The position numbers and the translations under genes are program-made. The notes beneath the pieces are model-generated. The model saw only the letters and a program-made list of their open reading frames with translations, did not search any database and was not told where the DNA came from. A stretch of 64,000 bases of DNA from Octopus vulgaris. Its lineage: Eukaryota. Where the stretch lies: NCBI GenBank assembly GCA_951406725.2, contig OX597817.1, positions 79,298,001-79,362,000 of the forward strand. Reading direction: 5' to 3'. Positions 18,337-54,482 of the stretch are shown here, piece by piece (within the stretch, counting starts at the first letter, position 1; every line of letters begins with the position of its first letter).

Positions 18337-19182
18337 TATACATACATACATATATATATATACACACACTACATATATATTCATACATATAGAGAGATAC
18401 ATACATACATACATACATACATACATACATACATACATACATACACACATACATGCATACATATATATCATCATCATCATCATTTAATGTCGGCTGTCTA
18501 TGCTGGCACGGGTTGGATGCTTTTTACGCGCCACCAGTATGACTGCCCTTTGTGTATCACGACTGCAATTTTGCTCGGATTGATGTGTCTTCTTCTCAAG
18601 CATGACATAATGCCAAAGGTCACAATCATTGCCTCTGTGAAGCTGAACACTCAAAAAGAACTCAGCGACTTTGCTTCCATGGATCTCAATGCATGAAATG
18701 AACTCAGCCACTTTGCTTCCATGAGGCCCATCACTCGTTTTCACTTGGCTTGACGGGCCCTCTCAAGCACTCTCTTTACTCTTTTACTTGTTTCAGTCAT
18801 TTTACTGTGGCCACGCTGGAGCACCGTCTTTAGTCGAGCAAATCGACTCCAGGACTTATTCTTTGTAAGCCTATTGGTCTCTTTTACCGAACTGCCAAGT
18901 TACAGGGACGTAAACACACCAGCATCGGTTGTCAAGCAATGTTGGGGGGGGGCAAACACAGACACACAAACATGTACACAGACATACATATATACATACA
19001 TATATATATATACATATATACGACGAGCTTCTTTCAGTTTCTGTCTACTAAGTTCACTTGGTCGGCCCAAGGCTATACTAGAAGACACTTGCCCAAGGAA
19101 TCATGCAGTGGGACTGGACCCACAATCATGTGGTTGGTAAGCAAGCTACTTACCTCACAGCCACTCCTGCACCTATACATAT

Positions 19183-19264
<82 letters not shown>

Positions 19265-19273
19265 GTATATATG

Positions 19274-19308
<35 letters not shown>

Positions 19309-20081
19309 TCGCATGATAGATCTAGTAAAATGCTTAGTGGTATTTCGTCTGCTGTTACACTCTGAGTTCAAAATCTGCCGAGGTCATTTTTACCTTTCAT
19401 TCTTTTGTGGTCGATAAATTAAGTACCAGTTACGCACTGGTTTCGATGTATTTGACTTAATTCCTTTGTCTGTCCTTGTTTGTCCCCTCTATGCTTAGCC
19501 CTTGTGGGCAATAAAGAAATAAGATTAAACGATAGAATAAGTACTAGGCTTTAAAAAATGTGTCTTCAGGTCGATTCATTTGGCTAAAATCATTCAAGAT
19601 GGTGTCTCCAGCATTGCCTCAGTCAAATGACTGGACAAGTAAGTAAAATTTAAATATATATGTATATATGAGTATGACGTCCTGTTTTTGTTATTATTAT
19701 TATCATTATTGTTTTTACGTATTTTCGTATTCTTATTCGTGTTATCATTATTGTTTTTACGTATTTTCGTATTCTTATTCGTGTTATCATTATTGTTTTT
19801 ACGTATTTTTTTGTATTCTTATTCGTTCCCGTCCTTGTTTTGTATACATTCGAGGCTTTCTTCCAAGGAATCTAATGCGCTTGGCTTAGATTTTCCTTTG
19901 GGGCTGGCCAGGTCGGAGCAATCTCAAGATTAATCAGCCGAAATTGCGAGGATGATCCGGTTCTTGACTGAAGATTGAAGGCTTCGAATGTCCCGTCCGT
20001 GTTTTTTGTATCGTCTTCTAAATGTTTTGCGTTCTTGTCCCAGTTAGTATTTTTTTATGTGTGTGTATATATATATATATA

Positions 20082-20135
<54 letters not shown>

Positions 20136-20404
20136 TTAATAAGGGTGAGAGAATTAGATACTAATTTAATAGTATATCTATTCAACACCAAGTGGCCTAG
20201 TGCTCCGAGAAACCTGGATTATTATAATATTTTATAATATATTATAATATTTTTACAAAATAAATATAAGAGAGTGGTCACTATATGGCTCACTCTAGCA
20301 CTAGTTAATCCAAAAGGTTTCAACCACAAAAATACATGTTTCCCATGAAAGTCAGTACGATTGTTAGCTCACACGGACAGGGCAAATAAAAAATAACAAA
20401 AATA

Positions 20405-20500
20405 CAGATTATTTTGGGACAATTGTTTCGCTATTAATGAATTAAATGTAATTTTACTTACAAAAAAATCCACTTGTAGCTCCTCAGCCAAAACTATCTG
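20405..20500 (-). ncRNA. Type I hammerhead ribozyme, tandem-duplicated copy
   Basis: Identical to 21795-21890; predicted cleavage at position 20418, 1390 bp from the other minus-strand copy. Confidence 0.85.
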
Positions 20501-20577
20501 GATGAAATCCACTCAAGTGATTGAGTGGTTGGTAAGCAAGCTACTTACCTCACAGCCACTCCTGCACCTATACATAT

Positions 20578-20663
<86 letters not shown>

Positions 20664-20664
20664 G

Positions 20665-20699
<35 letters not shown>

Positions 20700-21472
20700 T
20701 CGCATGATAGATCTAGTAAAATGCTTAGTGGTATTTCGTCTGCTGTTACACTCTGAGTTCAAAATCTGCCGAGGTCATTTTTACCTTTCATTCTTTTGTG
20801 GTCGATAAATTAAGTACCAGTTACGCACTGGTTTCGATGTATTTGACTTAATTCCTTTGTCTGTCCTTGTTTGTCCCCTCTATGCTTAGCCCCTTGTGGG
20901 CAATAAAGAAATAAGATTAAACGATAGAATAAGTACTAGGCTTTAAAAAATGTGTCTTCAGGTCGATTCATTTGGCTAAAATCATTCAAGATGGTGCTCC
21001 AGCATTGCCTCAGTCAAATGACTGGACAAGTAAGTAAAATTTAAATATATATGTATATATGAGTATGACGTCCTGTTTTTGTTATTATTATTATCATTAT
21101 TGTTTTTACGTATTTTCGTATTCTTATTCGTGTTATCATTATTGTTTTTACGTATTTTCGTATTCTTATTCGTGTTATCATTATTGTTTTTACGTATTTT
21201 TTTGTATTCTTATTCGTTCCCGTCCTTGTTTTGTATACATTCGAGGCTTTCTTCCAAGGAATCTAATGCGCTTGGCTTAGATTTTCCTTTGGGGCTGGCC
21301 AGGTCGGAGCAATCTCAAGATTAATCAGCCGAAATTGCGAGGATGATCCGGTTCTTGACTGAAGATTGAAGGCTTCGAATGTCCCGTCCGTGTTTTTTGT
21401 ATCGTCTTCTAAATGTTTTGCGTTCTTGTCCCAGTTAGTATTTTTTTATGTGTGTGTATATATATATATATA

Positions 21473-21526
<54 letters not shown>

Positions 21527-21794
21527 TTAATAAGGGTGAGAGAATTAGATACTAATTTAATAGTATATCTATTCAACACCAAGTGGCCTAGTGCTCCGAG
21601 AAACCTGGATTATTATAATATTTTATAATATATTATAATATTTTTACAAAATAAATATAAGAGAGTGGTCACTATATGGCTCACTCTAGCACTAGTTAAT
21701 CCAAAAGGTTTCAACCACAAAAATACATGTTTCCCATGAAAGTCAGTACGATTGTTAGCTCACACGGACAGGGCAAATAAAAATAACAAAAATA

Positions 21795-21890
21795 CAGATT
21801 ATTTTGGGACAATTGTTTCGCTATTAATGAATTAAATGTAATTTTACTTACAAAAAAATCCACTTGTAGCTCCTCAGCCAAAACTATCTG
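21795..21890 (-). ncRNA. Type I hammerhead ribozyme, inverted copy
   Basis: Reverse complement of 21915-22010; predicted cleavage at position 21808. Confidence 0.87.
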
Positions 21891-21914
21891 GCGTGTGATT
21901 GAGTGGATTTCATC

Positions 21915-22010
21915 CAGATAGTTTTGGCTGAGGAGCTACAAGTGGATTTTTTTGTAAGTAAAATTACATTTAATTCATTAATAGCGAAACAATTGTCCCA
22001 AAATAATCTG
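21915..22010 (+). ncRNA. Type I hammerhead ribozyme (intact core)
   Basis: Stem I cagat-ag-ttttgg / ccaaaa-ta-atctg; CTGAGGA 21928-21934; stem II gcta/tagc closing a 43-nt loop; GAAA 21986-21989; palindromic stem III ACAATTGT; GUC cleavage triplet ending at 21997. Confidence 0.88.
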
Positions 22011-22235
22011 TATTTTTGTTATTTTTTATTTGCCCTGTCCGTGTGAGCTAACAATCGTACTGACTTTCATGGGAAACATGTATTTTTGTGGTTGAAACCT
22101 TTTGGATTAACTAGTGCTAGAGTGAGCCATATAGTGACCACTCTCTTATATTTATTTTATATTATATATATATATATACATGTTACGTTTATATATTTGT
22201 TTTGCAAGATTTTTTATGTGAAATTGTGTATTGAA

Positions 22236-22462
22236 ATATATATTGTTGTATTTAGGGATGGTCATTTTGCCAATTTAACCAATAAAACACACGCACTATA
22301 TATTTGATGCAGTCACAGGAGTGTGACGAAAGAACTCTGGCCAAAATAAGATTACGATTAATGTAAAAAATAAATAACGCTGAAGTAACACCTAATATAT
22401 AGTGCATGTGCTTTTATCGGCTAATCTGGCAAAATGACCATTCCTAAATACAACAATATATA
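22236..22462. mobile_element. Inverted pair in (TA)n with truncated hammerhead-like remnant at 22304-22346
   Basis: Arms about 22236-22304 and 22394-22462 are diverged reverse complements; the spacer reads ttgatgca-gtcac-aggagt-gtgac-GAAA-gaactct. Confidence 0.6.
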
Positions 22463-22470
22463 TACATATG

Positions 22471-22553
<83 letters not shown>

Positions 22554-22596
22554 TCATTATCATTTAACGCTAGCATGCGTGGGTATATGTGAATCG

Positions 22597-23644
22597 TTGA
22601 CGATGTGTCCTGTGTTGCCTTCGAAACACGCCTGAGTTAACTAGCGACAGCTGATGACGGTGGATTTTTCCTTGTGTAGCATGTCCTGTACTTGTTTTCT
22701 TGTAAAAAAAAAAATTTTGTTTTTCCCGTTTCTACGTCTTGTGTTGTCCTGTACTTACGTATATTTATTTATATATGCATGTATATATACATGTAGATAT
22801 AGGTACGTACATATATGTTTGTATGTATGCATATATTTTTATTTATTACATTATTGTCTGACAGCGCCTCGCGTCAGGTTCGTTTCGATGTATCGGTTCG
22901 TTCCACTTCTTGTCTCCATTTAATTTTTATATATATATTTAAGACGCAAAATTCGCTCCCTTTGCTTTACCCTCTCCACTCTCTCTCCCTCTCACTCTTC
23001 CTCTTTTCTCTCTCTTAGCCGCGTGTCCCCCTCCTCCTTCCTTCTTTCTCACCGCCAGCCTAAAAATTTCTTTCTTTCGCACGCTGCCTCTGCTACTGAA
23101 AAGTCAAGCTTTCCACACGCTGCCACACAACATCTTTCGTCTAGCCAAAAAAAGGCATTTTCGTTTGTTTGTTTTTTCTCACTTGTTCTCTTGTTTGTTT
23201 GATTTCCCGTATTGTATTCTCTTTTTATTTCTCGTCTTGTATTTTTTTGTACATGTATTTTTATCTTGTATTTTATTGTGCAGTTTTATTGTTACATCCT
23301 GTTTGTGTTGTTACCCGTTTTACCCCGCTGCTTGGAATTTTATTTTAATTCTCTCGCAGGAAGGCCTAGTTGACGATGTGTCCTGTCTTGCCTTCGAAAC
23401 ACGCCTGAGTTAACTTGCGACAGCTGATCACGGTGGATTTTTCCTTGTGTAGCATGTCCTGTACTTGTTTTCTTGTAAAAAAGTTTTGTTTTTCCCGTTT
23501 CTACGTCTTAAAATTTTGTTTTTCCCGTTTCTACGTCTTGTTGTGTTGTCCTGTACTTACGTATATTTATTTATATATGCATGTATATATACATGTAGAT
23601 GTAGGTACGTACATATATGTTTGTATGTATGCATATATTTTATT

Positions 23645-23650
<6 letters not shown>
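22597..23650 (+). mobile_element. Non-coding element with about 250-280 bp direct terminal repeats (PLE pLTR/retrozyme-like layout)
   Basis: 22597-22846 is repeated at 23369-23650 (ttgacgatgtgtcctg..ttgccttcgaaacacgcctgagttaac...); pyrimidine-rich interior; flanked by (TA)n. Confidence 0.6.
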
Positions 23651-23682
<32 letters not shown>

Positions 23683-24581: not shown

Positions 24582-24616
<35 letters not shown>

Positions 24617-24625
<9 letters not shown>

Positions 24626-24955
24626 TAAATTAGAGATAAAACCACTATTAAGCAAATCAAACAGTGAAAATCATAAGCCAATACATTATTTAAATTATTA
24701 ATTTAAATAATTTTTAAAATTTTAACTTTAATTTAAATATTTTAATTGGATTTTTATATTTTATATTTTATATTTTTTATATATTTTTTAATTAATTTTA
24801 TTTCTATGTATTGGCTTATGATTTTCACTGTTTTATTTGCCTAATAGTGGTTTTATCTCTAATTTAATATAATATATATTTATACTATAAAATTAGATTT
24901 AATCCTAAATCTAATTTTTCCCTGTAAGTTTGGATTTACTCCCTAATATTATTAT
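24617..24955. repeat. Inverted repeat element within (TA)n
   Basis: Arms 24617-24685 and 24807-24878 are near-perfect reverse complements around a roughly 120-bp almost pure A/T spacer. Confidence 0.8.
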
Positions 24956-27024: not shown

Positions 27025-28088
27025 TTATTCAATAAAATCACCATTGGATTGAACCACAGGCTCCAGATGACTTCGGAATCTCCTGCAACTCTTCTGGACA
27101 ATCTCCTTGTTTAAGTTGGTAAATGCTGCCATAATCCTTGCCTTCAGTTCATCTTTGGTGTTACAAGGAATTCTGTTGGTCTCTCGCTCAACTGCACCCC
27201 ACACATAATAACCAAGTGGACTGCAGTCTGGGGAGCTAGGTGGCCAGATTTTAGGGGTGATGTGGTCGTAGTAATTGTTTGACAGCCATGACTGTTTTCT
27301 TCTGCTTGTGTGACATGGTGCAGAATCTTGTTGCCAGACACAGGGTTTTCTAGTAGCCACCCTCTTCACCCAGGGCAGCGCTACCTCCTCCAGACACTTG
27401 ATGCCACCAGTCATCTTCCCGTGTGGCATAAGGTCGCCATCACTAGTGATAACTCGAAACACCATGATGTTGATTGGATGTTTGATTTTCATCAATCTCG
27501 GTAAATGTTTTGGAGACACGGCAAGCCAACGGTTGTTCTCTGTGTTCACCAACTGATTCTGGCAGAAATTTTTTTTCTGAGAAAAGCCAAAGCATGGTCG
27601 GTTGGAGAGGATACTTGAGTTTGTTCATAATAAATGTTCGTAGCATGGTCTTTTCTCTTGTCCTTTGTGGCTTGGGATAAAATTTGGTACTCCCTCATCT
27701 TGTATGAGGAACACTGAATGTCTTCATGCACTTCCTGCCTGATAAGAAACTCAGACATTCCTGTGTCCCTGGCAATGGACCTGATTGACTTGGAGAGATC
27801 GTTGTCGATCATAGCTGGGATCTCACCAACAAATTCAGGAGTTCTTTTCAGATTGACACCCAAGCACTCTGAAATGTTCGTATTGGAGCTTCCAGTGTGA
27901 ACGCCAAGCAGTTCATCATATCATTACAAAATTTCTGGCAGAGTGAATAGCATCATGCTGCTGTTTTTCTCACAGATGGTCCCCAACTGACCCTACTATA
28001 CTGTGTAGTTGGCAAAATTAAAAACAAACAATGCACATGCGCGAAATTAAAAATATAAAATGGTGAGAATTTATCCATCGCACCCTGT
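27025..28088 (-). mobile_element. Tc1/mariner-superfamily (maT/DD37D-like) transposon pseudogene
   Basis: ORFs 27546-27863 (HTH-like, KSIRSIARD) and 27025-27552 (WQQDSAPCH, WPPSSPDCSPLGYYVWG); terminus TA-CAGGGTGCGATGG at 28088. Confidence 0.9.
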
Positions 28089-32889: not shown

Positions 32890-33345
32890 TCACCTTTTAG
32901 CAGTCGGTATTTTTCAATCTTTTCTAGTTCTTTGTCACTTATGTGTGCATCCCCACGTATTGCAATATCTACAATCTTGGTTTCCTATCTTCTTTATCTA
33001 CCACAACAATATCTGGTTTCTGAGCCTTGATTGGGGAGTCACATTTGATTGTAAAAGCCAGCAGTATCTTATATTCCTTGTTCTCAGTGACTCCTTTTTG
33101 TTCATGTTCATACCATTTCCATGCTCTGTCCAGGCTGTGCTTTCCACATAAGCTCCAGTAGATGAACTTAGCCATGTTATTGTGCCTCCTTTTGTAGTGC
33201 TTTTGGGTTAGATTGCTATACTCACTCACAATATGTGAGATTCTTTCATTTCTGCTGACATACATCCTACAAAGGGGTGACTCACTACTCTCCTCTATTT
33301 GGAACTTGGTGTAATTAGCTGTCAGAGATTGTTCTTGAGCACTGT
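32890..33345 (-). mobile_element. R4/Dong-clade non-LTR retrotransposon fragment (zinc knuckle + restriction-like endonuclease)
   Basis: QEQSL..CRM..E.ISHIVSE..YKRRHNN..WYEH..KPDIVVVDK. Confidence 0.85.
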
Positions 33346-33548
33346 ATGTCAATGCCTCAGGGCATCCTTTCAGTTCAGTTTTTATTAGCCTCAGGGCATC
33401 CTTTCAGATCATTTTTCTTAGCATCAGGGTATCCTTTCAGATCATTTTACTTTACTATGTTCAAATGTGGATCTTGTCTTTACCCTCATTATTATTGTTG
33501 TTGTTGTTGTTATTATCATTGTTGTTGTTGTTGGTATTGTTGTTGTCG

Positions 33549-36920: not shown

Positions 36921-38250
36921 ACTAGCAGAAATACCCGGTGTTGCCTGGGTTAAAGAAAATAATGATGAAATTTATAAAAACCATCTAGATTATGCAGGTC
37001 TCAAGTTCAAGTAGCTGAGATAACAACTTTCTACATAACTCTACATCTCATACTGACATGGAACATAGACATTAAGTGAAATGTGAAAAGAAAGTTTTCA
37101 ACTCATATATGTATATAAGGTAAATACACATTTGTCTAACTTATTTTGTAACCAAAAAACAGGTACAGATTATAAACAATGAAAAGCTGTGCGTAGAGTA
37201 CACACACACAAACAGACATCGAATATATTACAATATTGTTTCACTTTTATACACACAGATATACATTCACGCATGCCACTCGAAAAGTGAAAACATAATA
37301 GTAATACCTTAACACTCAATGGTTTTACACTTCTGTATATGACATGGTCCTACTATTCATGTAAGTGCTTCTTCATATACTGTGTTTTCTTTCTTGCCAT
37401 GTTTATCACTGAGAATGTAGAGGTTCTTTTCATCTCCAACACAAGAACATCCAACATACAGCTGACCATGTGAGAAGCAAGGTTGAAGGAGCTTAAGTCC
37501 CACCACCTTTTCAGATTGACCTTGTGCTTTGTTGATAAACATTGCAAAGCTGAGTTTGACAGGAAACTGCAGTCTCTTAAACTGAAAGGGGAGATCATTT
37601 GAGATGAGAGGTATCCTTGGAATGAAGACATTCTCACACATCATGTTGCTATGATGGAGAAGAGGTTTCTCAGCTGCATAGGTTACTGCCACATTTGTGC
37701 CTCTGTCAGAGTGGCATCCCAGTGTGCATCATCTTCTAGAAGATCTGTGAGATGGCAAGCCTGGTGATATGTTAGACATACTGTGTCGTCAAACATATGT
37801 AAGGTTGTAAATGATGTGGGTCCCTTGACATGGTGTAATAGAAGCCTTAGATAGTAGCACTCTGAGTAGTTGGAATGGATAACAAAGACTCAACCAAGTC
37901 TGTCTGATTACTTGATTCCCAGAATGTGTGTGGGTGCTCCAAGTGCACGTCTTTTCCAGTTGTTTTGGTGCCAGGTATAGAATTGTGGAACTTCATTGTA
38001 TAGCAGTCTTGTAGCAAATTCATCTTGAGATAGCTTGCAGAATCCTGTAAGTGTGGTATTTTTGGGAGCTTCCATTTGTAGTTGGACTGCGTCAGTCCTC
38101 AACAGCTTCACATAGTCATGTAAAATGAGTCTAAGGCCTTGTTCAGAGATGTGAGGGTGAAAGAATCCTGACATGTCAACAACCAGAATGCCTATTGTGA
38201 CCCTTCCTGCTGGCCACAGTTTCATAGAGTCCATTGCTTCAGTCCATGTC
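36921..38250 (-). mobile_element. Helitron remnant (Rep region + Pif1 helicase C-terminus + 3' hairpin/CTAG)
   Basis: 37357-37692 gives FKRLQFPVKLSFAMFINKAQGQS..FSHGQLYVG; 37700-38100 gives LLYNEVPQFYTW, YYLRLLLHHVKGPTSF and LLEDDAHW; 3' end cccaggcaacaccggg..CTAGT at 36921. Confidence 0.92.
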
Positions 38251-38530
38251 ACGTCTTACAGCCTCTACAGTGTTCACAGAGCAGTTTGATAGTTGGCATG
38301 AATTGTCATTAAACAAATACAAATAACATTTTTCCAGCATTCATATGACTTCTAGTCCTGCATGTCAGCTAACTTTTTCTCAACTACAGTTTAAATGTTT
38401 ATACACTCCAAAATCATTGACTATTCGCTAATACTTCATGCTATTTCTCAAAAAAAAAAGGTGACATAAAAATCGCCAAATTTAGCCTCAACATTCTGTT
38501 TATTGGTATATATAAATACATACATGTATG

Positions 38531-51583: not shown

Positions 51584-51586
<3 letters not shown>

Positions 51587-53800
51587 CGTGCATTGGAGCG
51601 GTTCAACTTCTCCAGGCGCCAACGCCACCTCAACATCTCCCCGGCTGAGCTCTTGGCTCTTCGTTCCCTCCAACGGCGCGCTGACATTATCATCAAACCG
51701 GCTGACAAGGGTGGAGCTGTAGTGGTGTGGCGCGCGGACCTCTATAGGGCCGAGGCTTTCCGCCAACTCAATGACACCTCCTTCTATTCCCCTCTGCCCT
51801 CTAACCCCACACGTAGCTACCAACAGACGGTATCCTCTACTGTCCAAGACCTCATCTCGTCCTCCCGTCTCCCCCGCACCGCATCCAACCTAATTGTGCG
51901 AACCCCACGTACCCCCACCATTTACTTCCTCCCCAAAATCCACAAACCCAACAACCCTGGCCGCCCCATCGTCTCCGCCTGTAACTGCCCCACGGAGCTC
52001 ATCTCTAAATACCTCGACCGTGTCCTTGCCCCCCTAGTGGCATCTCTTCCCTCCCACATCCACGATACCAACCATGCTCTCCGGCTTTTCAACTCTTTCT
52101 CCTTTCCTCCCGGCTCCTCCAAAATCCTTTTTACTATGGACATCCAAAGCCTCTATACTGTTATCCCTCACCACGAAGGACTGCAGGCCCTTCGACACTT
52201 TCTTGACCTCCGCTGTAACCCTGTACCTGACACCTCCACACTCATTCGTCTGGCCGAACTTGTCCTTACTCTGAACTGCTTCTCGTTCGCGGGCGAGTTC
52301 TACCATCAGGTCTCGGGAGTGGCCATGGGAACGCGAATGGGCCCCAACTATGCGAACCTGTTCGTTGGCTATGTTGAGGCCCAAATATTCTCTAATTTCA
52401 CTGGTCCCACTCCTGAACTATATGGTCGTTACATTGACGACATTATCGGTGCCACCTCACTCTCCCGCGAACATCTAGATTCCTTCCTCTCTTTCGTCCA
52501 ATCTTTCCATCCAGCCCTCCACTTCACTTCCACTATCTCCAACACCTCTGTCTCCTTCCTCGACATTTCGGTTAGCATTCTTCACTCCACTCTTACCACC
52601 TCCATTCACTACAAACACACAGACTCACACTCATACCTCAACTTCTCTTCCTCCCACCCAGAACACACCAAGCTTTCCATCCCCTATTCCCAATTCCTCC
52701 GTCTACGTAGGCTCTGTAGTGACGACCATGACTTTGAGACTCAGTCTCAACGTATGGCTCACCACTTCATCCTACGTGGATACCCCCTCACCACTATCCA
52801 CACCGCCCTTACCAGAGCACGGTCCGTGGACCGTGTATCTGCTCTCTCTCCCCGAACCCGCCCTGTAGTCTCCCGCCTCCCTTTTCCCCTCACTTACCAC
52901 CCCACGACCCTACGTCTCCAACGCACCATTCTTCGAGCTTTCCGTCATCTCCAGTCCGACCCGTCCACTTCACACCTCTTCCCTAACCGACCCCTCCCCT
53001 CTTTCAAACGAGCCCACAACCTTCGAGACCTTTTGGTCCATAGCTCCTTCCCTGACCCTACCTCCCAACCCGGCTCGTTCCCCTGCTCCCGCCCACGTTG
53101 CCGCACTTGCCCTTACCTCTCCAACACCACCCGCCTCACTAGCACCCACCATCGACCCTATCCCATCATCCACTCCTTCACCTGCACCTCCAGCAATATT
53201 ATCTATTGCATCTCTTGCTCTCTCTGCAATTCCTTGTACATCGGACAAACGGGACGCCGCTTGGCTGACCGGTTCGCGGAACACCTTCGTGACATCCACC
53301 TTGCGAACGACACACCGGTCTCACGCCATTTCCGCTCCACCGGTCACTCCTTGCAACACCTATCTGTGTTCGGTTTGTCCTTATACAGAGGCCATCCGGA
53401 TTCCCGTTTGCGCCGTGAAGGGGAATTAATCTTCTCTCTTCGCTCTTATACGCCATTTGGTCTCAACTCTCCCCCTCCTCATCTAACCCCTCTCCCCCTC
53501 CTCACCTATCCTTTCCCCCCGACCCCTACTTCTTCAGTCCTTCATCCTTTCACCCCTACTCCCCTTCCCTTCTTCCCTCTTTCTCCCTCCCTCTTCCCCT
53601 TCCCTCTGCTCCCTCACTCCCTCTCTCCCCTTCTCTCTCCCCCTCTCCCTCTTTCCTCCTTCATCCCCCTCCTCCCCATCCTCTCCTCTTCCCCCCTCTT
53701 CTTCCCCTCCCCTCTCTCCCCCCTCTTCTCCCCTCCCCCTCTTCTCCTCACTACACCACATGACTTTACACATCACATCACATATGATGTGCCATACTAA
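51584..53800 (+). CDS. Penelope-like element polyprotein (reverse transcriptase + Cys-rich linker + GIY-YIG endonuclease), 5'-truncated
   Basis: Uninterrupted frame with PLE RT motifs IKPADKGGAVVVW, YFLPKIHK, GRPIVS, MDIQSLYT, GVAMGTRMGPNYANLF, YIDD (52430-52441) and SFLDI; linker CSRPRCRTC; GIY-YIG NIIYC..LYIGQTGR..RF.EH..PFGLN. The ORF-track start at 51509 lies in flanking SINE/(TA)n, so the real element sequence begins at about 51584. Confidence 0.95.
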
Positions 53801-54038
53801 TACACACACCAACTAATACATACTAATACGTACTAATACATACTAGTACATACTAATACATACACCAACCCTATACATACACACGTCCAGACCCCGCATA
53901 CGCACTTATACTCTCTCATACACACACACACACACTTATACATACCAATACGTACTAATACATACTAATACATACTAATACATACACCAACCCCATACAT
54001 ACGCACGTCCAGACCAATCCTACGCACTAATACTCTCT

Positions 54039-54077
<39 letters not shown>

Positions 54078-54140
54078 ATACATACTAATACATACACCAA
54101 CCCTATACATACACACATCCAGACCCCTCCTACGCACTAT
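53795..54140 (+). repeat. Composite tandem repeats in PLE 3' UTR
   Basis: 10-bp CATACTAATA units plus three copies of catacaccaacc(c/t)atacatac..(g/a)tccagacc separated by (CA)n. Confidence 0.85.
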
Positions 54141-54309
54141 TAGCTGGTCCCTCAACCCATTTATCAACCCTATTATCTCCCCTTATTTCGCTCTCGCGTC
54201 TCATGTTTGATCTTTGACCTCTGGCCGAAATCAGATCGCCATGTTGATTCGTTAGCTACTGCACGCATTTTTTTCTCTCCTTCTTTCTGTGTTTTTCTCT
54301 CTCTGTGTA

Positions 54310-54347
54310 TCTTTCTGTTGAAGAGCGTAGGCTCGAAACGTTAAAGA
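54310..54347 (+). ncRNA. Minimal hammerhead-like motif in PLE 3' pLTR
   Basis: tcttt-ctg-TTGAAGA-g(cgtaggct)c-GAAA-CGT-T-aaaga: core with C3>U, 1-bp stem II, palindromic ACGT stem III, stem I tcttt/aaaga with a bulge. Confidence 0.55.
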
Positions 54348-54444
54348 CTTGTTTTATTTATATTTCCTGAGCGCCATACTAATACAATTGTTCGTTTGTT
54401 TTCCACCTGCCTTCGTCTTTTGTTTATTTTCATAAAGCTTCCCG

Positions 54445-54482
<38 letters not shown>

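Follow-up and report, generated by a model that had tools for sequence, protein, structure and literature searches.

We found that the three hammerhead ribozymes of the window (the whole 64,000-nt stretch of Octopus vulgaris DNA that was analysed) are no local novelty; judged from their sequence, they are incomplete copies of a 535-nt repeat that is young and codes for no protein. With good confidence we read their locus as a two-armed insertion of this repeat, a non-LTR retrozyme likely written in trans by a Penelope enzyme, to which a one-off 1.39-kb duplication was added. The window locus itself is an ordinary partial copy, and its value lies in the two-site end rule of its family. Insertions of the repeat end at two fixed unit positions, about 407 (site A) or about 277–280 (site B), and the two arms of an insertion use different ones. 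This rule is the main new result and is not previously described for retrozymes in the literature searched. In the octopus and cephalopod literature consulted, which left most subscription papers and Repbase outside, so that a repeat name may already exist for it, we found no description of this retrozyme family, nor of such an end rule in retrozymes. A squid genome paper merely counts 235 Rfam hammerheads (PMC6962438).

Each of the three ribozymes has the core CUGAGGA, GAAA and GUC. Hammerhead 1 lies at 20405..20500 on the minus strand (core start 20487, cleavage predicted after 20418), hammerhead 2 at 21795..21890 on the minus strand (core start 21877, cleavage predicted after 21808) and hammerhead 3 at 21915..22010 on the plus strand (core start 21928, cleavage predicted after 21997). 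These results agree with the first-pass annotation of this DNA, which had reported three hammerheads with cleavage sites at 20418, 21808 and 21997, the positions where we place the cleavage nucleotide C17, the minus-strand pair being spaced by 1390 nt; as it had claimed, the three sequences are the same over the displayed region. Stem I is 12 bp with one A.A mismatch, stem II is 4 bp and its loop is a 43-nt structured extension, and stem III is 2 bp with a palindromic tetraloop. The ribozymes thus show the features that define type I (CUGANGA, GAAA, NUH and three helices with helix I open), and their earlier placement among the type I hammerheads of the retrozyme and Penelope world was correct. 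With its 2-bp stem III the window ribozyme belongs to the canonical metazoan type, as opposed to the minimal type of the EN+ Penelope-like elements, and the canonical type works best as a dimer according to the part of PMC4209133 available to us. The earlier suggestion that the palindromic stem III permits a dimeric ribozyme holds for the modelled structure.

When the 96-nt hammerhead motif was folded, a z of −3.8 was obtained and none of 200 shuffles was equally low; the hammerhead-active structure is 2.7 kcal/mol less stable than the minimum-energy one. A search with the Rfam hammerhead models, a check that the first-pass annotation had proposed, did not recognise the motif: for the window ribozymes no hammerhead model reached its gathering score or appeared among the 64 matches to E = 10, probably because of the long 43-nt stem II extension. 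The matches to miRNA families were rejected, as they reflect just the palindrome and the microsatellites. The single internal loop of stem I is 1x1 and stem II is without a short loop; the usual loop–loop contact is therefore not apparent, and cleavage may proceed slowly. In the main text of a recent vertebrate study, eight of nine predicted frog retrozymes gave no in vitro cleavage, and one of the nine elements tested was active (bioRxiv 10.64898/2026.07.22.740005).

The absence of an associated ORF, also claimed earlier, was confirmed, the longest ATG frame in the full unit being an antisense one of 52 aa. No RT or GIY-YIG ORF was found in the 535-nt unit or at 19–23 kb of the window, and no tRNA gene at 18–23 kb. 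Short frames elsewhere in the window (27025–27920, 32969–33403 and 37357–38255) resemble what we take to be a Tc1/mariner transposase, a LINE end and a Helitron helicase.

The genome-wide search for copies, likewise proposed in the annotation, uncovered a large young repeat family. The intact ribozyme pattern matched 2,132 places in the genome and its reversed control none, which excludes chance. With the right arm as query, the 2.8-Gb genome gave 1,321 candidates, the best 40 of which are 99–100% identical. The full unit was observed at locus L023, where 535-nt units with one hammerhead each are repeated head to tail; unit positions in this report are numbered from the start used for that array. 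Six further arrays have a period of 533–535 nt, and the longest arm comprises 13 units (C1:40.93 Mb). Family copies are set in (TA)n tracts and are dispersed across many chromosomes. Also present are more distant copies and an older subfamily whose period is close to 503 nt; the subfamilies are 70–90% alike. Two promoter-type motifs, a TATA-like and an E2F-like word, lie within the unit segment that is absent from the window, and we take them as no proof of a promoter.

We aligned 17 hammerhead copies, which represent about four lineages only, so that the covariation counts are not independent. Stems were paired in 93% of the cells, and changes on both sides were seen in 5 of 23 pairs, 4 of them among the 12 pairs of stem I; the covariation score was reached by 0 of 500 shuffles. 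The free core position N7 is A in 37, G in 32 and C in 10 of 79 copies. A core kept intact in 2,132 places, together with stem I covariation across the subfamilies, argues for selection for the ribozyme. The 535-nt monomer also has a strong predicted fold (z = −6.7 as a linear molecule, and z = −5.7 against 30 shuffles as a circular one).

At the family level, therefore, we observed a type I hammerhead in consecutive tandem units, no protein coding, no LTR structure and head-to-tail units only, as well as a monomer predicted to be self-paired with its ribozyme free to fold. The 535-nt repeat family fits the non-LTR retrozymes, as a new family member. A plant LTR retrozyme was rejected, since a type I ribozyme in simple tandem units stands here against LTRs with a type III hammerhead there, and so was an autonomous Penelope-like element, as the unit is without an RT or GIY-YIG ORF. 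As far as the available part of the paper by Cervera and de la Pena (2020; PMC7229834) describes the metazoan non-LTR retrozymes of coral, mussel and axolotl, the octopus family resembles them in its short non-coding tandem unit with one type I hammerhead, low GC, no LTR structure, a self-paired predicted circle and coexistence with Penelope elements. It differs in the length of the unit (535 nt compared to about 170–400 nt), in the 43-nt structured extension that takes the place of loop II, and in its two fixed 3′ ends with A/B-paired inverted arms in (TA)n, which that part does not describe. Circles have been documented for the coral, mussel and axolotl retrozymes, and their expression and cleavage demonstrated (PMC7229834). 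The unit falls inside the 51–972 bp range of the vertebrate non-LTR retrozymes (Li, Clavereau, Pollet 2026; bioRxiv 10.64898/2026.07.22.740005).

To characterise the ends, 34 distinct insertions were examined; they come from the best matches of the genome searches and are therefore biased to young copies and arrays. Nineteen are two-armed, with the arms head to head. Arms in this sample end at unit about 404–410 (A) or 275–287 (B) and are followed by (TA)n. Among the two-armed loci 15 of 19 combine A with B, 4 combine B with another position, and the combinations AA and BB do not occur (0/19). One of those four is the window locus, which was cut by the edge of the extracted locus and is truly A+B; the other three end at 389, 453 and 212. 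Genome-wide, exact ends numbered 876 for A and 424 for one variant of the B end, compared to 1,548 run-on junctions. Next, the ends listed on C1 and, as far as 74.8 Mb, on C2 (100 A and 45 B) were paired where they lay within 15 kb of each other. All 22 outward-facing pairs were A+B, with no AA and no BB, for which the chance under independent ends is at most 2.4e-7; one further pair faced inward. As the B pattern covers one variant only, many true pairs were missed; AA pairs would have appeared.

The two sites are 130 nt apart. In contrast to these fixed outer ends the inner joints are ragged: judged from where the BLAST alignments stop, the arms overlap by 2–26 nt at 11 of 16 joints, abut at 4 and are separated by a small gap at 1. 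These features bear on whether the repeat is a satellite or a MITE-like element spread by DNA-level copying, with the palindromes as terminal inverted repeats. Tandem arrays and inverted arms are indeed common in this family, as such an element would have them. However, its outer ends are unlike (A versus B), its inner ends are ragged, its arms range from under 1 to 13 units, and its copies are scattered among (TA)n tracts on many chromosomes. Together this is the pattern of 5′-truncated reverse transcripts, and we regard DNA-level copying as scarcely credible.

The window locus holds partial units only. Arm 1 (20127..20516, minus strand) comprises unit 18–407; its 3′ end is at site A and runs into (TA)n. 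Arm 2 (21518..21891, minus strand) comprises unit 33–407 and also ends at site A in (TA)n, and arm 3 (21886..22158, plus strand) comprises unit 5–277 and ends at site B in (TA)n. Thus the locus obeys the end rule, the left arm ending at A and the right arm at B. Two arms are joined head to head through a 6-nt microhomology (21886..21891), and the resulting palindrome covers 21629–22178. The (TA)n target tract flanks them on the left at 21450..21517, with a duplicate at about 20060–20126, and on the right at 22159..22180. Unit positions 408–535 and 1–4, a quarter of the unit, are missing, and the locus probably represents a dead end. All three arms cross the cleavage site (unit 116), as a copy of a cut monomer could not; either a re-ligated circle or an uncut multimer thus served as the template. 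Downstream of the locus we also observed a 70-nt inverted pair (22236–22304 and 22394–22463), a direct duplication at 94–95% identity (22596–22854 and 23369–23656) and a 290-nt palindrome (24604–24889).

The anatomy of the insertions suggests how they might arise. The cDNA appears to be the top strand on the left arm and the bottom strand on the right arm, so both ends of the break would have primed synthesis. We propose that tandem arrays are transcribed, that the hammerheads cut out 535-nt monomers, probably aided by dimer formation, and that these would be closed into circles. A Penelope-like reverse transcriptase-endonuclease acting in trans would then cut both strands of a (TA)n tract, and each DNA end would prime one cDNA, one starting from site A and the other from site B, 130 nt away. 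The cDNAs would vary in length (under one unit at the window locus, elsewhere up to 13 units) and would finally be joined head to head, often via a few shared bases. In its most specific form, in which a Penelope enzyme, probably a dimer, carries out rolling-circle reverse transcription of one 535-nt circle from both ends of the (TA)n break, the two start sites being fixed, separated by 130 nt and obligatorily different, we give this scheme somewhat less than even confidence.

Published work on Penelope elements, as far as the sections available to us go, is consistent with such a mobiliser. A Penelope protein purified from a lizard element cleaves AT-rich DNA on both strands, extends each of them and uses two internal start sites on its RNA, the interval between them being the genomic tail (PMC11167929). 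The end rule matches this two-site start and two-strand priming in vitro, which makes a Penelope enzyme the likely mobiliser. Penelope insertions contain partial tandems and an inverted arm, with a tail that is often confined to one end (PMC8557442), and partial tandems, an inverted arm, a one-sided tail and a microsatellite target are what we found here, as expected for a non-autonomous element mobilised by Penelope. More generally, the family is like the EN+ Penelope-like elements (Poseidon PAc, PMC11167929; PMC8557442) in its partial tandems, inverted 5′-truncated arm, one-end tail, AT-rich or microsatellite targets, type I hammerhead and two start sites. It is unlike them in that the unit has no RT or GIY-YIG ORF. 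The 130-nt A–B interval counts against the Penelope link, as it exceeds the 30–40 nt of Penelope tails (PMC8557442).

The same Penelope mobiliser could also have copied an uncut multimeric transcript of an array, in which case the hammerhead would be weak or idle and no circle would be needed. Insertion by the lizard Penelope in vitro needed no ribozyme cleavage (PMC11167929, available part), partial tandems are normal for Penelope elements (PMC8557442, likewise), and long genomic arrays exist as templates. On the other hand, the selection implied by the 2,132 intact cores and by stem I covariation across subfamilies 70–90% alike would be hard to reconcile with an idle ribozyme, and the unit folds as a compact self-paired RNA like the retrozyme circles described in PMC7229834. 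We consider the uncut template unlikely and favour the circle.

Both ends of a target DNA also prime cDNA in the twin priming of LINE-1, which produces an inverted arm. There, the second primer has no fixed internal site and adjoins the point where the first cDNA ends. The octopus insertions are unlike this: each of their two starts is fixed, and their inner ends vary independently of each other.

The duplication involves the left host flank and the left arm. Its tandem copies, 19130..20501 and 20525..21891, are 99.5% identical and differ by three 1-nt indels and one 4-nt microsatellite indel, with no substitutions. Between them is a 12-nt inverted piece (unit 14–25; 20517..20528, plus strand), which ends in a 4-nt microhomology jumping back to 19130. 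The duplicated flank includes an older dispersed repeat (19640..20060, second copy 21031–21451) that is not part of the retrozyme; the duplicated interior as query gave 2,382 candidates, and its copies elsewhere are 88–97% identical.

The first-pass annotation had proposed that a minus-strand transcript of this region, cut by its two ribozymes, frees a 1.39-kb monomer, a nascent retrozyme that carries host repeats. It is true that two intact ribozymes lie on the same strand 1390 nt apart and that the 1390-nt circle folds with a z of −11.7 (8 shuffles), a value that the (TA)n runs probably inflate; fold energy fails to separate the 535-nt from the 1390-nt circle. However, the natural unit is 535 nt, its segment 408–535 is absent from the locus, the junction of the duplication occurs only once in the genome, and no similar duplication was seen at the 33 other insertions, most of which had about 1.5 kb of flank only. 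The captured interior, earlier described as SINE pieces, is the older dispersed repeat. Moreover, in a transcript reading through from the right side the antisense arm would be made first and is predicted to trap the upstream ribozyme, pairing with all 70 core nt of ribozyme 2. As both minus-strand ribozymes must cut to free a 1.39-kb monomer, transcription would have to begin within the short stretch at the middle of the palindrome. For transcript folding we relied on the perfect-hairpin result alone, as the minimum-energy folds of 1.6–2 kb transcripts formed stem I for no copy. A 1.39-kb retrozyme is thus very improbable. The annotation had also seen in read-through of the palindrome a built-in off switch. 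The pairing it expected was obtained, the ribozyme being predicted to pair with its antisense copy over 70 of 70 core nt; the switch was not upheld, since the head-to-head layout is the usual form of insertion (19/34) and is better regarded as a by-product.

Alternatively, the insertion may be real but the 1.39-kb duplication a product of faulty sequencing or assembly at the fold-back palindrome. The copies differ by indels alone (three of 1 nt and one of 4 nt), and one of these departs from the family sequence; such a pattern looks like consensus error. A very recent genuine duplication, however, would likewise show no substitutions. The junction is a templated three-part join of arm end, 12-nt inverted piece and 4-nt microhomology, and complex centres that resemble it occur at other insertions, for example at L084. 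At the centre of that two-armed insertion (L084:5770–5991), additional inversions and about 220 nt of simple-repeat DNA unrelated to the unit show that templates were switched at the joint. An artefact therefore seems doubtful to us. We read the duplication as a template-switch accident during the joining of two cDNAs, a one-off event that probably arose during repair of the joint.

The comparison with sequencing runs covered the full unit. At least half of the words of the unit were present in 20 of the 21 listed runs (six organisms, nine studies), none of which is recorded as RNA. In each of the four runs aligned to the unit all 30 bins were covered, and contigs joined the end of the unit to its start. 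Two runs from other organisms, X2 and X19, gave one closed contig each, of 565 and 563 nt (534 and 532, each plus 31), that of X2 having no flanks and no variants; closed contigs fit a circle and tandem DNA equally and show neither strand nor level. In runs X1 and X3, mapped to one unit (L023:1488–2022), A>G and T>C changes together accounted for 10 of the 15 and 19 of the 30 variant places, respectively, and no C>T was seen; the sites 1544, 1608, 1611, 1612, 1669, 1682 and 1688 are no common alleles of the older subfamily. This bias is possibly due to A-to-I editing of palindromic RNA, or to alleles. An editing signature in the genomic copies was rejected, as C>T (16 sites) and G>A (13) exceed A>G (10) and T>C (5).

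At least two Penelope families that are young, have open frames and end in (TA)n occur in this genome. The first has a 781-aa frame and 16 copies (L087–L102), 95–99.5% identical to one another's reference; these also have an open stretch upstream of the frame and repeated promoter-like blocks, and near the 3′ end a hammerhead-like motif with an atypical core was noted by eye. A copy of the second family lies in the window itself (51586–54447, plus strand), 5′-truncated between (TA)n tracts. It has a stop-free frame with an RT, and a cysteine linker and a GIY-YIG domain were recognised by eye. This family gave 19,271 candidates, with 147 scored copies at 98% or more and frames of up to about 1,200 aa. 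At about 54300–54350 of the window and in L166–L179 we observed a minimal hammerhead-like motif with a non-canonical core, U replacing the expected A6. The U was present in all 23 motif matches listed and is thus fixed in this young family rather than a product of decay.

The search for an autonomous partner, also proposed earlier, revealed no Penelope sharing sequence with the unit among the loci compared. It drew on the 150 scored of 6,136 GIY-YIG candidates; between the unit and 46 GIY-YIG loci, the window element and 14 full-length loci of its family, only AT-rich words were common, and loci of the 781-aa family likewise shared no more than such words. An apparent match of the unit in L169 is a diverged retrozyme copy and was rejected as partner sequence. 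Eight other hammerheads (L105–L112) have the same palindromic stem III with different stems, and several end shortly before (TA)n; they are probably the 3′ ends of further Penelope-type families. No Penelope ORF was found within 1.5 kb of ten other hammerheads with this stem III, two of which belong to the retrozyme family.

Penelope elements have been called a strong candidate for the mobilisation of animal retrozymes (PMC7229834, available part), and their non-autonomous use is likewise proposed for the vertebrate retrozymes, in a study that lists the mobilisation mechanism as unresolved (bioRxiv 10.64898/2026.07.22.740005). There, the link is drawn from co-occurrence, trees and pLTR similarity, and here from the anatomy of the insertions; the main text of that study contains no passage on molluscs or on inverted arms. 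It invokes local amplification and unequal crossover for the vertebrate tandems, whereas the fixed-end arrays and paired arms found here point to tandem formation at insertion.

The end rule suggests that the mobility of this retrozyme is tied to Penelope chemistry, and testably so. It makes a sharp prediction, that the partner Penelope protein starts cDNA at unit about 407, and on the other strand at about 277–280. A retrozyme family that is young, abundant and small suits the study of the unexplained tail and inverted arms of Penelope elements. If the proposed mechanism is true, the intermediate of Penelope integration would stand recorded in the thousand or so young natural insertions of the octopus genome, which would then be direct evidence from a genome for how animal retrozymes move.
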